UHGV virus genome: UHGV-0228197
Length of the DNA stretch: 36,878 bases
Direction: 5' to 3' (one strand)
Source of the DNA: a virus
This document shows positions 3,001 to 15,000 of this stretch, one piece after another. Made by a program: the position numbers. Position 1 is the stretch's first letter. Each line of letters begins with the position of its first letter.

Positions 3001-6000
3001 AGTTCAGCCGTGTGATATTGCGTCGCAAGAACGATATGGAGCGGCTGACATCTGGCGCTCCATCCTTATCAGTCAGGCGAACACTTTGTTGCAGCTTCTG
3101 CAACAAATCCCAGTACGCCGTCAAAAAGTTAATTGCTGGGGACGCCGTTTTCATCTGCGACGAGTGTGTGGATGTGTGCAACAGAATTATCCGGGGAGAG
3201 AAAGAGGGATCAGCATGAAATTTTCCAAATTTTCTGAGTTGGTGAATCGTATTTTGTCCAACAACCACAGCCATCGTCGCGATATGGATGTAACGATCGT
3301 TGTTCATTCGCCTGGTCGCATCGGTTCAACACCATCAGTTGAGGTTCAGTCAATTCAGGCGGGTTTTGATTGGGATGCCGGGAAAGTGATGATTTTTCCA
3401 GCACAGCCACTGATCACGCTAACACCGGAGCAGGTTGCTGATATCACTGATAGTGTGCGCAAAGGTCAGTCTTGGCACGCGTATCAGGAATACAAGAAGC
3501 ATAAAGAGCAGTTGGAAAAATTGTTGATGGAGTTGGAAGCCGCTAAACAGCGGGAAAAAGATCTGTTTATGGAAAATGTTCGACTTAAGTCAGGTATAGC
3601 CGGTCTGATACACCTCGGTATTCGATATGCGGATGTTGAGGTCATGAAAATTGCTGGAGATGCCCAGCTTTCTACTCCATGCACTGACAGCATCATAAAC
3701 AGCATTGCAGCAGGCATTTTCACCAAAGAGGGGGCAGCACGATGAGAACACTAGAGGTTCGCGCTGAAGACGTAATCCCTGGTGATGTGCTCATAACATC
3801 TAAAGGTCAACAATGTGCGGTTAAATCTTTTTGGATGGAAAATGACAAAGTGACTCTGTTCGGTACGGATGGTTCCGAAACTGATTATGACTACGACGAA
3901 TTGCTTGTTATTGAGAGAGCTGCCTAATGACCACCTTTACCAAAGAACAGTTAATCTCCCATGCACGCGAAAGCGTTAGTTATCTGGAAAACTTGAAAGG
4001 ACGTGTTAGCAAAGAAGGTGCGGACTGCAAAGTTGTTATTGAGATGGTTGCACGAGATCTAAAACTGGCACGGATTGCGCTGGCATCGCTGGAAGCAGAT
4101 CCAGTTAAACGAGTTAACTCAGATCAGATGCGCCGAGTCTGCTTAGAAGCTAATCGCCATTTAGATAAATATGACGCGATGGCGAAAGAGGTAAATAAGT
4201 TGCTTGGACGCATCGCCCCGCCAGCGCCGGTAGTGCCGGAAGAAGCAACTCCGGAAAACGTAGAAATGCTCTCTGGCTATGTTTCCACGTACAAATTAAC
4301 CGATAGCGAGCGCGATATTGCTGCCGAAATATGGAACGCCTGCCGCGCCGCCATGCTTCAGTCCGGAAACTTTCGGGAAAATAAAGATTCGTCAACCAAT
4401 AATTTTCGGAAAATCCCGGAAGCGTCAACCAGCTCTCCGGTAACTCCGGATGGTTGGATAAGCTGTAGTGATCGAATGCCAGAAATGGGAGAGCGACAAT
4501 ACTATGTGTTAGCAGCTGACTTTAAAAACAACTACCCACCAAGCATCCCCAACACTCAGGTCGGCGTATATGGCGACTGGTTTAATGATGGCAATCCCAC
4601 TTGGGATGACGGTGATGGCGAAGACCTGCATCTCAAAGAAGTAACCCACTGGATGCCGCTACCAGAACCGCCGAAGGAGGTACGCCAATGACCTAGCCTG
4701 AAGCATTTGCAATTGTAGTGGCTGCCATTTCGATCGCACTGATTGTTTTTGCGATTTGCCGCTGGGGGTAAAATAGTTCACCTGCATGGAGATTTGATGC
4801 CGGGGAATTGTGGGGGAGCATTCAAACCTCTCCCCTTCCCGGTTAAAGACTCCATTGCTTTGCGGTCAGAGAGATACATCAGCTTCATCAGCTTAATGAA
4901 ACGCATAGATCCGCCATGCTTTTTCAGCAAATACGCTGCCATTTGCGCAACTTTTTCTTCATTAAACATAAATCGGCTCTCTGTCTCACATGAAATACTC
5001 TTTCTGACTATATGTTAATAGCTCCGGTTATTACAGGTTAATGTGTGTTTATTTCTTAATCAGCCCCGCACTTCCGTACGGGGCCATTTCTGTTAATCCA
5101 CTCCCACTTTTTTGTTGTACTCGCGGTTAAACCGATCCACGGCAACCTTCATATCCCGCTCTACCGATTTCACCATCGCCGCCTGCTGCGCCAGACTGAG
5201 AGAACTGTCGGCATAAATGGCATCGCGCTGTTTGCGCAAATCCTTCAGTCTCTTCCGGGTATCCTGCATAAGCCCGTTCATCAACAATTTTCCGTTGTTC
5301 TCGTCAATGAACGCCGTTCTTTCTGCACCGGTCAGACTCTTCAGCTCTGCGTGATACTGCGCAACCTCTGTCATCCGGTCGTACATCTTCTGCTGGTCTG
5401 CATACGGCATCACCTCACCCGAAATTTTCCCCAGGAAGGGCACCTGCTGTTCCGGTATATCAATACCATTCAGCGATTTCACCGCCGCATCCGTGGTTTT
5501 GGAAATGAAGCGCCCTGTCCCTCCGGAGATATAGTCAATCCAGAATTTCAGCGATTCCGGTGTGATATCCACCGCGCCGGGACGATACTGGCTGCCACCT
5601 GAGAACGCATTCAGCCAGAATGCAAACGCCTTGTACGCTTCTGGCGTTGAACGTCTTCCCAGCTGGCTGTCAGGTTTTGGTGTACCAAACGGCATGTTCT
5701 CCTGGTAAATCTGCGCCCCCATGAAGTTTTCGTTCATGGCAAGATTCGCAAACGGACGCAGAATTGTCGGTGCTGCATTTTTCAGCAATGCCCCCGACAA
5801 CGTTTCCGACGTCTCGCTGCCGATCGGGCTGAATGCCCCCAGGATACCGCCGACAACATTACCGGCAGCACGTGAAGCAGTCAGGTCGCCCGCTGCCACA
5901 CCTTCAGCTGTATGACCAAGCAGGAAGAACACGTTGTACCCGTAAGGCAGAGGAATACTCCAGTACTCACCGGCCTTGCCCCCGAACATCGATTTCATGA

Positions 6001-12000: not shown

Positions 12001-15000
12001 CCGCATCAGCATACTGTTCCAGAAGCTGCTCGCGATTCATCCCCTGCATAGATTCACGATGCTGTGCCACCGGATCAACCGGTTCGGGTTGCGGAGCCGA
12101 TTCGTCCTGAGGAACGCTTTCAGCCTCACGCATGGCTGCTTCATCTGCCGCCTGACGTTTTCCACGATATCCGGCAGCCGCACCGAATGGTGCCCCCATT
12201 GCAGCACCAAGGGCTGCACCTTCGATCGTTGCGTCAGCCACGCCCTCCCACGGTGACACATCCATTCCGGCGGTCTCACGCAATGCCGTGTTTTCCTGAT
12301 AGCGTGAATAGCCACCCTGCGCCGCATTAATCGTCCCCTGTTCCGTGGCATTTCTGACAATGCCGCTTTTAACGGTCTTCGCCGTGCCCCGCATCGCCAG
12401 ATTAAGCAACTGAGCATCGCCCAGTTTTGCCGCCATGGCATTCACAGCCAGCAATTCAGGATCGGTTGCCAGTTGCGCACGCACCTCATCGGCAACACGC
12501 TCTTTTGCCAGGTCCATTTTCTGGCGGTCAGTAAGCTGCGCGTGCTGCGGATCTGCATCAATTGACAAAAAGGTCTGCTGAAATTTCGGTGACTTCGCCA
12601 GCTCAGAATAATCCGCGTTAAGAACAGCATCTGCCGCTGCCATTGCACTCCGCCCTTGCGCACTGACAGTGGAATGGGTGATCAGGCCTGCCTGGAAAAA
12701 ATCCGGCATTTTTTTATCGACAGCTTCGGCTGCCAGTGCTGTGGCTCTTTCCGGCTGCATCCCTGCCGCGATGTATTTTTTCTCCAGCCCGGCGGTCAGC
12801 ACTTTTCGCAGAGTGACATCACCCAGCTTTTTAGTCACACCGCCTGCAACCATATCCGGTACAAGCGCACCAATCAGGTTAACCCCTTTCGCTACCCAGA
12901 CCGCTGAATCATCATATCCTTCAGTCATCGGTGTATTCAGCGCCCGCTGCGCCCCCGGCGACATCTTGCCAGTCAGCCATTCATCCGAGGCTTTAGCGCC
13001 GCCACTGACTGCCTTGCCTGTGACCTTCAGACCTTTACCGACAGTATCAGTAACCGCATTTTTTCCATCAGGCAGAGTGTCGATGACCTCATCCGCCCCC
13101 TTGCTGCCACCGACAAAAATATCCTGAACAGTTGCTACTCCCGGCAGCCCCATACGGCTGAACTCATTTAAAATACGTGCCCCTGTTTTTACCGGGCTCT
13201 GAATCATCGCATCACCGAGTCCACGGGCCATTTCCCCTGTCCCCCGGACGGACTGGGCGACACCTTTCCCCATAGTTGGCAATACATCGCCCAGGCTGAA
13301 CGACGTGCTGTTGTCCTTCCAGCGATTGGGATCGGAGAAAAACACATCATAGCTGTCAGTCTCTCCCGGCTGCTGAATGTTCAGGCTGTTGCGGCTCTGG
13401 TTGCCAAATTGCGCTTCAGGGCGCTGTTCATCGGAATAAGCCATACAGACTCCATAAAAAAACCCGGCACAATGACCGGGTATCAGGAAATAGTATTAAC
13501 GGGAATGGTGAATTACTGCGCGTAATTCTGTTTCAGACCACGGATAAACTCAGATGCAGAGGCCGCGCTATCATCCCTGGCCTGTTCCCCCCTGGCCTTT
13601 TGAATACGGAGAAAATTCGCATACCCGTGTTCCAGCAATTTCTGATTCTGAGGCTCCAGCATTTCTGGCTGACGGGAGGCCACTTCTCTGGCAAATGCCT
13701 GCTTATCCGGATCATCACCCGCCCAACTGGTAATCCCTTGTTGAATTTTTTGCTGCTGAATTTGCTGCTGATACTGCGGCAGTCCCATCGAAGCATAATA
13801 TTGCGTCACTGCTCCCTGCGCATCACCGCCGTCCTGTGCAACCTTTATCGCTACCTGGCTGGCTCCTTTCTGAAGTTGATCCGCAGAAAGTCCCTGCTGC
13901 TTCGGCGTGAAATAGCCGAAATTTTTCGAAATTTCCGCGAATTTACTGCGATCCCTGACAAGCTCAACAGCCTTATCAACAGGCACCGCCAGCACGGTTT
14001 GATCATCAGGATGTGCACTGCCGTATTCCGTAACGGGTTTATGTGCTGTAGAGCCATCACTGTATGTGAGATCAAGGCCGATAAGTATGTACCCTTCCTG
14101 CTGTGCCGGTACTATACTGCCAATCCTGGCCTCTTTTATCGTCTTTTTCCCGGTTGAATCGGGCATGCCAATACGCTGTTGCAGTTCCGGGCCAAACATC
14201 CCGGAAAGGACATCAAGATTCTCCGGCGTATTAAGTGAAGCGATAGCCCTGTCTGGCTTGTCATCAAAGATTTTTTGCAGGTTGTTCACGGCCTGACCCG
14301 CTTTCGCTACATAGCCATCATTCGCCATCAGCCTCAGCGGATTACCCTCTGACAACTGGCCGTAAAGACGCATTGCTGCATCCCGATCGCCAGCATCCAC
14401 AGCCTTTCCAAGCGCCGCCATCACAGGCTGATCGCGCGCCAGCATATCGTTATACTCAAGCCGTCGCTGGTTGTATTTCTGCATCCGGAGTCGCTGCTGC
14501 TCCATACCCAGCGACGCATTCCGGTAATTCTGGTTGGCGTTAAACTCCCTTTCCTGCAGTGCATAATTACGGTCGTCGACTTTGGCTCTGTAATCAAAGT
14601 TCCGCTGATCAACGTCTTTATTATGTTCAAACTGCGACTGTGCAAATTCAAAATCGCGCTCGTTATTTTTCTGTTGTTGAGCAAGCTGTGCTTCTCGCAA
14701 ACCAAGTTCCTTACGACGGGTCATTGCCTGGTCAACCGTGCTGAATCCGGCAAGTAAACCCTGTGCAAATCCGCTCATTCACCACTCCTTAAAACAAAGA
14801 ACCAGCAATACCACCTATGACAGCACCAATAGCCGCACCGGGGAGACCACCAACAGCAGCGCCCATAGCTGCACCCGTACCAATTCCCGTGCCGATATTC
14901 TGTTTGTTCTGCGCTTTCTGTTGCGCCGCCATCTGTTTGTTCGCGGCCTCAATTTCTTCACGTCGTCTGTCGGCATCACTTATTCCCTGTAATGCCTCAC

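Follow-up and report, generated by a model that had tools for sequence, protein, structure and literature searches.

A giant polyvalent-type protein of 933W-type Stx phages: a conserved frame, exchangeable cargo and a probable role in ejection

The virus genome UHGV-0228197, analysed as one window of 36,878 nucleotides (nt), carries at the end of its virion gene cluster an open reading frame (ORF) for a giant protein of 2783 amino acids (aa). We observed that this protein is built on a lineage-wide frame, made of an N-terminal domain (N-domain), a zincin domain with an HExxH..E signature and a helical C-terminal module (C module). Between the frame parts lie a disordered linker and swappable cargo, namely a triad of helical, LPD5 and zincin domains, and a MuF-C/PBECR domain (Table 1). 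Profile comparisons indicate homology between the N-domain and the N-terminal, membrane-inserting domain of the virion RNA polymerase (vRNAP) of phage N4. The reading that we prefer, and regard as probable, is that of a virion-packaged polyvalent protein of 933W-type short-tailed Shiga toxin (Stx) phages, in which a delivery frame carrying exchangeable cargo is ejected and anchored in the membrane. The protein itself is already known from RefSeq annotation, PHROGs, the survey of Iyer, Burroughs, Anand, de Souza and Aravind 2017 (PMC5512222) and a 2026 preprint on phage phi24B. New here are the frame-plus-cargo description, the two conserved zincin sites, the correction of a label given to MuF-C and the N-domain homology to N4 vRNAP. 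The comparison with giants of related phages, proposed in an original prediction made from the sequence, thus revealed a shared frame, in a gene that was annotated and published already and is no discovery.

The ORF listing of the window shows no internal stop in this frame; from the base composition (GC ~54%), the chance of a random frame staying open for 2783 codons is estimated at ~1e-50. Comparison with the orthologues of 933W, Lyz12581Vzw and Stx2-86 (Nei-Gojobori method) gave a ratio of non-synonymous to synonymous substitutions (dN/dS) of 0.05 to 0.24 in every domain. This is therefore a functional coding gene under purifying selection, and the uninterrupted ORF originally predicted at the end of the virion cluster is real. 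Its DNA matches 186 phage records over its full length, with 90 to 96% identity (best, 95.6%), all from Stx-converting or related Escherichia/Shigella phages of Sepvirinae. The orthologues phi24B gp47, 933W gp72 (NP_049532) and Stx2-86 gp35 (annotated "LPD5 domain-containing protein") are full-length counterparts with an identical set of Pfam domains, likewise located last among the virion genes, and PHROG 616 covers the protein end to end. The window gene differs from them in being its own mosaic of alleles.

Four Pfam families were matched: LPD5 (aa 1047-1190, 147 bits), LPD1 (aa 1351-1430, 81 bits), MuF_C (aa 1740-1829, 64 bits) and LPD38 (aa 2466-2671, 162 bits), all far above gathering cut-offs of 27 to 27.6 bits. 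The resemblance to large polyvalent proteins that had been proposed is hereby upheld, and by its domain content the protein is classed as a phage polyvalent protein. In the Iyer 2017 survey (PMC5512222), the zincin metallopeptidase (MPTase) serves as hub, an enzymatic role is considered possible for LPD5, MuF-C counts as an RNase-like domain with a BECR fold (PBECR), and LPD38 is restricted to polyvalent proteins of the phage type. Our protein conforms to this class in having several LPD/effector domains, a zincin hub with HExxH and a downstream Glu, a PBECR domain and a late-gene location. The survey, however, treats the domains as a network, and a fixed frame of N-domain, second zincin and C module is not described in it.

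A motif scan located two HExxH motifs in the protein, HEWFH at aa 1274 and HEIIH at aa 1541. The first falls within a match to the NCBIfam family CLCA_X (aa 1172-1427, E 5e-45, under its curated cut-off), and LPD1 is therefore the end portion of a zincin domain of ~250 aa to which HEWFH belongs. In this domain (zincin 1), residues H1274, E1275, H1278, D1281 and E1372 are conserved at 95 to 100% among 37 sequences; in the second (zincin 2, or HExxH2), H1541, E1542, H1545, E1597 and E1604 are conserved at 94 to 100% among 52 distant sequences. Both are recognisable as predicted zincin metallopeptidase sites, and the domains resemble zincins that cleave proteins (MtfA, anthrax LF, Pro-Pro endopeptidases, IrrE, SprT/Wss1). 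The original prediction had missed these motifs and was too pessimistic in leaving the activities of most segments unassigned, given two conserved zincin sites and a recognisable PBECR RNase-like domain. It had correctly reported neither Walker A nor methyltransferase motifs: the giant protein has no GxxxxGK[ST] motif or helicase Pfam hit, and no methyltransferase motif IV ([DNS]PP[YFW]) or corresponding Pfam hit. PADLOC gave no hit, and relaxed Pfam scans of eight segments added only Gly-zipper hints.

The remainder of the predicted architecture was recovered as well. The N-terminal region is Gly/Ala-rich and contains a Gly zipper whose residues G413, G417 and G421 are invariant among nine distant relatives. 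Hydrophobic-poor stretches rich in Pro, Gln and Glu extend over ~aa 400-580 and 700-890, while the linker segment at aa ~580-700 may be a small folded unit. Several globular segments emerged from two AlphaFold models, both built on alignments of distant homologues. For the C-terminal 954 residues, the predicted local distance difference test score (pLDDT) was 82.5 and the predicted template modelling score (pTM) 0.79. The model of aa 880-1850 (pLDDT 79.3, pTM 0.48, the low pTM being expected from a beads-on-a-string layout) comprises five domains: helical (899-1034), LPD5 (1037-1161), zincin 1 (1184-1439), zincin 2 (1467-1655) and an alpha plus beta MuF-C (1670-1834). No solved structure was matched by sequence, using either the whole protein or profiles of the C module, middle region and N-domain; Foldseek found no match to the middle model in the PDB at E < 0.1, and no solved structural analogue of the C module was found.

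Table 1. Features of the giant gene and of its upstream neighbourhood in the window
Feature	Position (nt)	Strand	Remarks
N-domain, aa 1-465	12050..13444	minus	N-terminal in ~63 giants; homologue of N4-like vRNAP N-terminal domain
Most hydrophobic segment, aa 182-200	12845..12901	minus	Aligns with N4 gp50 204-275 (predicted membrane-spanning helices there; PMC13434306)
Gly zipper, aa 409-426 (GAALGAAMGAPFGAAAGY)	12167..12220	minus	G413, G417, G421 invariant
Linker, aa 466-898	10751..12049	minus	Pro/Gln/Glu-rich, mostly hydrophobic-poor; four LPxP motifs
Helical domain, aa 899-1034	10343..10750	minus	Conserved DFGxxxxGAxK and PxPDY motifs; first of cargo triad
LPD5 alpha/beta domain, aa 1037-1190	9875..10336	minus	Pfam PF18799 at 1047-1190
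Predicted zincin metallopeptidase 1, aa 1179-1439	9128..9910	minus	CLCA_X-like, includes LPD1; HEWFH aa 1274-1278 (nt 9611-9625)
Predicted zincin metallopeptidase 2 (HExxH2), aa 1464-1656	8477..9055	minus	HEIIH aa 1541-1545 (nt 8810-8824)
MuF-C/PBECR (BECR-fold RNase-like), aa 1669-1832	7949..8440	minus	Pfam PF18819 at 1740-1829
C module, aa 1877-2779	5108..7816	minus	~900 aa, mostly helical single fold; LPD38 aa 2466-2671 (nt 5432-6049)
Whole giant ORF	5093..13444	minus	2783 aa + stop; ATG start; ORF listing
Terminator-like hairpin + T7	13462..13481	minus	Directly upstream of ribosome-binding site and ATG of giant gene
421-aa gene (PHROG 601)	13513..14778	minus	Upstream of giant gene; phi24B gp48 orthologue is a virion protein
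Three small upstream genes (83 aa, 150 aa, 218 aa)	14789..16155	minus	phi24B gp50, gp51 orthologues detected in virions

The homology of the N-domain was examined at several levels. A hidden Markov model (HMM) of the N-domain matches aa 101-445 of N4 gp50 with 40.4 bits for the full protein and 52.6 bits for the excised segment; in comparison, 2000 composition-preserving local shuffles scored -14.9 bits on average (standard deviation 4.2, maximum 6.1), and the reversed sequence -14.8 bits. The same HMM also matches the vRNAPs of Ea9-2, inbricus, Piffle and OLIVR3. Aligned by hhalign with seven N4-like N-terminal domains, the N-domain gave 98.7% (E 2e-16, 322 columns), against 0.1 to 0.5% for cross-controls, and independently built alignments gave 97.6% (E 2.8e-12). 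The matching part is the section of the N4 N-terminal domain kept among distant Schitoviridae (about aa 150-440). Two 2026 papers (one of them PMC13434306) describe this domain of gp50 as flexible, with predicted membrane-spanning helices at aa 224-278; these align with aa ~183-230 here, which include the most hydrophobic stretch of our protein. According to these papers, the gp50 N-terminal domain inserts into nanodiscs and would serve as the anchor of vRNAP on the inner membrane and the gp51 tunnel, the remainder of the 383-kDa chain being proposed to cross a channel of ~35 Å as beads on a string. Iyer 2017 (PMC5512222) retrieved only related phages with the N4 vRNAP N-terminal region, and our scan of IMG/VR with the N4 domain returned N4 itself only. 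We did not find the homology stated in the literature searched, a limited search that does not prove its absence.

The two giants are alike in other respects. Like N4 gp50, the window protein belongs to a podophage with a T=9 head, is encoded by the last gene of an ejection-protein block, continues after its N-terminal domain with a low-complexity linker in a beads-on-a-string layout, and has an HExxH zincin ahead of a large helical C-terminal domain. Unlike gp50, it has no RNA polymerase domain and stands outside the vRNAP family: a phmmer search with the N4 RNA polymerase domain (aa 998-2103) found nothing in it, there was no RNA polymerase Pfam hit, and the 63 giants described below were also negative.

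To what extent this organisation is shared was seen in an exhaustive phmmer search with aa 1-470 against 1.84 billion representatives, which returned 100 proteins. About 63 of these are giants of 1500 to 4665 aa, in which the match is N-terminal. HMMs built from alignments showed that, in nearly all of them, HExxH2 is followed by ~900 to 1150 more residues, corresponding to a C module of LPD38 type or, in other giants, to a module of LPD39 type. The latter closes about 25 giants that have both N-domain and HExxH2 (P0283, P0286, P0291, P0293, P0294 and others), and a relationship links its C-terminal half with the LPD38 type (hhalign 84%, E 7.5e-6, 436 columns). HExxH2 lies upstream of the C module, either adjoining it or separated from it by MuF-C or spacer sequence. 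The C module, with about 70 invariant or near-invariant residues, is common to Vibrio, Ralstonia, Burkholderia and PTXU04 giants; tblastn found it at the C-terminal end of giant ORFs in Vibrio podophages (40% identity), Ralstonia phages (28%) and Burkholderia Bcep22-like phages (28%, "DarB-like"). The listing of homologous proteins has no entry above about 1700 aa and contains the giants as fragments, so that domain co-occurrence drawn from it is incomplete.

The content of the frame varies. The helical, LPD5 and zincin 1 domains always travel together as a triad in the HMM survey, and other giants have the same frame around a DarB-like methylase/helicase cargo. Thus, BcepIL02 gp70 reads SLT, N-domain (aa 279-637), methylase/helicase/LPD3, HExxH2 (3568-3713) and C module (3771-4659), and Vibrio D62 gp21 reads N-domain, an unassigned cargo, HExxH2 and C module; in PTXU04 gp25, both HExxH2 and the C module are present, and the N-domain was not detected. 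The Lessievirus giants Bcep22 gp75, BcepIL02 gp70 and JC1 gp69 share more than the frame: their gene also ends the virion module, their portal and capsid genes are related to those of 933W, and JC1 gp69 was detected in JC1 virions. They differ from the window protein in their N-terminal SLT transglycosylase, adenine methylase, helicase and LPD3, in their size (4500 to 4700 aa) and in lacking LPD5, the CLCA_X-like zincin and MuF-C, all three of which are present here. Conservation is far stricter in the frame than in the cargo.

Exchange of cargo is also visible among close relatives. At aa 840-1140 (nt 10025-10927), a stretch that covers the helical and LPD5 domains, identity to 933W and Lyz12581Vzw falls to 38 to 60%, compared to 95 to 98% in the remainder of the gene; the helical domain is the region diverging most among Stx phages. 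The pattern is reversed with Stx2-86, where aa 471-1660 are nearly identical and the flanks have a synonymous divergence (dS) of 0.2 to 0.38. Positive selection at aa 840-1140 was considered and rejected, since synonymous sites are saturated (proportion of synonymous differences, pS, 0.57 to 0.76) and dN/dS is about 0.2. This saturation indicates old alleles that were swapped by recombination among Stx phages.

Evidence on the location of the protein comes from the phi24B preprint, which combines cryo-electron microscopy and proteomics. There, gp47 (2811 aa as translated from the authors' ORF) is abundant in purified virions, absent from all maps and proposed to be an encapsidated ejection protein. 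In the supplementary table, it is the second most detected protein after the capsid protein, with 10,962 peptide-spectrum matches (PSMs). These peak in the top gel bands (2188, 1686, 1187 and 1260) before a long tail, and the peptides span residues ~108 to ~2441; the whole chain is therefore packaged, largely as a very large species. Length-normalised batch counts set against the portal (12 copies) give about 20 copies, a figure that indicates an order of magnitude only, as it derives from supplementary spectral counts and the same arithmetic underestimates the capsid protein about 1.5-fold. The N4 virion, by comparison, has 4 +/- 1 copies of gp50, and the spectral counts suggest more for gp47. 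The proposal that the protein is packaged and ejected is supported, packaging being shown for an orthologue by mass spectrometry of virions. Neither of the outcomes named in advance as refuting it, a conventional tape-measure or tail-fibre family or absence from virions, was encountered.

From these data we propose the following model. Many copies would be packed within the T=9 head. After release of the needle, the chain would exit through the tail channel as beads on a string, a passage eased by the long disordered linkers. The N-domain and its Gly zipper would then insert or anchor at the inner membrane, in the manner proposed for the N-terminal domain of N4 gp50. The homology of the N-domain favours an inner-membrane ejection component that also carries effectors, and the N-terminal part probably works like N4 gp50 and T7 gp16. 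The giant protein would then be a third, T7-gp16-like ejection component, and the small upstream virion proteins would supply the rest of the conduit. The role proposed for T7 gp16 and for P22 gp16 and gp20 is the same, that of head proteins expelled before the DNA that form part of an inner-membrane conduit; no sequence or fold similarity to them was found, however, and the window protein is 2 to 4 times larger and devoid of transglycosylase. Cleavage of the chain by the two zincins, within the head or once inside the cell, would free cargo into the cytoplasm. This cargo, the helical-LPD5-zincin triad and the BECR-fold RNase-like MuF-C, would presumably target host defences or RNA during the opening minutes of an infection.

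Several observations weigh against this model. Ejection, membrane anchoring, self-cleavage and cargo activities are steps that we infer, for this protein and for its orthologues alike. Classical transmembrane hydropathy is reached nowhere in the giant protein, the best 19-residue window scoring 1.38 (below 1.4). No transglycosylase, lysozyme or other peptidoglycan hydrolase domain was found in it, whereas relatives carry SLT or lysozyme. A conserved His/Thr catalytic dyad is not seen for MuF-C in the lineage alignment, and this domain may therefore be catalytically inactive. The gel ladder of gp47 was obtained from a six-month-old sample (phi24B preprint), so it may reflect decay and not processing. 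With regard to N4, the C module shows no similarity to the N4-like C-terminal domain (hhalign 0.3%; the 63 giants are also without similarity). The five upstream proteins reach at most 2% against gp51- and gp52-like alignments, the queries being single sequences of limited sensitivity, and the upstream neighbours in D62, BcepIL02 and PTXU04 likewise leave N4 gp51 and gp52 unmatched. The parallel with N4 is thus confined to the N-domain and to a weak zincin match of the HExxH2 region (hhalign 17%, P 0.0014).

Among the alternatives, the one that survives best, which we nevertheless consider unlikely, is a pure carrier of anti-defence or host-takeover effectors comparable to P1 DarB: injected, dispensable for DNA delivery, and with N and C modules serving for packaging only. 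The polyvalent class has been read as early conflict weaponry, the cargo varies among relatives to the point of including a DarB-like methylase and helicase, Stx phages swap cargo regions by recombination, and N4 requires its MPTase-bearing region for encapsidation, all of which would suit such a role. DarB is itself large, packaged in the head and injected, and a match to PHROG 10089 ('DarB-like antirestriction') covers part of the window protein, at aa 2344-2671. However, our protein lacks the N6-adenine methylase and SF2 helicase of DarB, and P1 is a myovirus in which packaging of DarB depends on DarA and Hdf, a different pathway; the DarB-type resemblance is limited to the shared C-terminal module. 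The N-domain, moreover, is homologous to the part of N4 vRNAP that serves as its anchor in ejectosome and membrane, the frame is kept far more constant than its cargo, and the cluster has no further large protein recognisable as an ejection protein. Finally, knock-down of PTXU04 gp25, which bears LPD38, strongly reduced plating on the laboratory host; gp25 is required for efficient infection there, which supports an essential rather than accessory role. This last result comes from a distant relative in which the N-domain was not detected, and in that respect it also tempers the model that we prefer.

The idea stated in the phi24B preprint, that the metallopeptidase activity digests peptidoglycan so that the conduit can cross the wall, has in our opinion a small probability. 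Short-tailed phages need a wall-breaching activity, and relatives carry one within the same protein, such as SLT in BcepIL02 gp70 (aa 77-168) or lysozyme in Salmonella P0157 (PF00959), neither of which is present here. The preprint, however, assigns the peptidase to MuF-C. This label does not fit the definition of the domain by Pfam and Iyer et al. as BECR-fold RNase-like, and was rejected; the zincin sites lie elsewhere. These zincins resemble enzymes that cleave proteins and not known cell-wall peptidases, and the zincin domain of polyvalent proteins has been read as a self-processing hub.

Still less probable, in our estimate, is an internal head protein kept in the capsid, for example to form a core, to organise the DNA or to fill up an oversized T=9 head. 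Abundance in virions together with invisibility in symmetric and asymmetric maps could be so explained, as could the capacity of the head, which from genome sizes we take to hold only ~57 to 62 kb of DNA here versus ~70 kb in N4. Enzyme-like cargo with conserved catalytic residues, however, lacks an obvious use inside a capsid, the layout of beads and long linkers fits the passage proposed for N4 vRNAP through its channel, and in N4 it is after ejection that the homologous domain acts. Identity as a conventional tape-measure or tail-fibre protein, suggested only by size and by location near tail genes, is refuted for practical purposes by the domain searches and the published virion model: no such family was matched in Pfam, PHROGs or NCBIfam, the phage type is short-tailed with fibres, needle and nozzle assigned to other genes, and the protein is absent from the tail reconstruction.

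We return to the gene in its setting, as last gene of the minus-strand virion cluster. A ribosome-binding site (GGAG, 13450-13453) lies 5 nt ahead of its ATG, and the terminator-like hairpin with its T7 run is placed 8 nt before this GGAG/ATG. The 933W RefSeq protein NP_049532 starts 13 codons further upstream and runs through the hairpin; this start is therefore probably mis-called. Next to the giant gene on the other side, positions 1-5018 hold convergent early-left genes on the plus strand (Ea22/Ant/DUF551). In the interval 1-5092, an integrase gene is absent between the giant-ORF stop and these genes; in Stx2-86 and Lyz12581Vzw, int directly follows the giant gene.

The Gly/Gln-rich internal virion proteins originally proposed upstream are apparent from composition: Gln accounts for 11.6% of the 421-aa protein, Gly and Ala for 18% and 19% of the 83-aa protein, and Gly and Gln for 13% and 10.6% of the 218-aa protein. 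The phi24B orthologues of the 421-, 150- and 218-aa genes (gp48, gp50 and gp51, respectively) are also found in virions. A homologue of the 421-aa gene is located in Vibrio phage D62 (4079-5482), directly upstream of the D62 giant (32% identity over 130 aa, E 2e-14). The pair formed by a mid-size virion protein and the giant is therefore conserved beyond enterobacteria, and the 421-aa protein is a candidate ejection partner; similarity between BcepIL02 gp69 and this neighbour was not significant.

The 83-aa protein (14789-15040, minus strand) is labelled 'bacteriocin' in relatives. It has a C-terminal Gly zipper, GAAMGAAVGGLPGAAIGAVIGGIAG, resembling the one that closes the N-domain of the giant protein; its orthologue yielded few PSMs in phi24B virions and is regarded as a contaminant in the preprint. 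Farther upstream, still within the virion cluster, positions 17000-19000 form a low-GC block (43%, versus 51 to 57% around it) with lom and two small genes, one of 208 aa labelled 'membrane associated protein' and one of 92 aa labelled 'outer membrane protein'. The preprint suggests a place at the needle tip for gp54, the 204-aa orthologue.

As for the origin of these proteins, we are evenly divided on whether the giants of 933W-, Bcep22- and GP4-type podophages and the N4-like vRNAPs descend from one ejection-protein chassis, a link for which no paper was found in the literature searched. Such a chassis would join an N-domain that anchors in the membrane to a flexible linker, a protease of zincin type and, at the C-terminal end, a large helical module, and its cargo would differ by lineage: RNA polymerase, DarB-like methylase and helicase, or LPD5/zincin/PBECR. 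If this were true, the Stx-phage protein would be both an essential part of DNA delivery and a modular device for protein injection. The frame-plus-cargo layout suggests that infectivity could survive removal or replacement of the cargo (aa 899-1832), a point relevant to protein delivery by phage particles. With the homology to the N4 anchor, what was a 'giant hypothetical protein' can be cast as a specific model open to testing, in which a third ejection protein carries enzymes; the model singles out residues E1275 and E1542 and the Gly zipper at 413-421. Short-tailed Stx phages are carriers through which Shiga toxin genes spread, and the model addresses how their DNA may cross the envelope after BamA binding.

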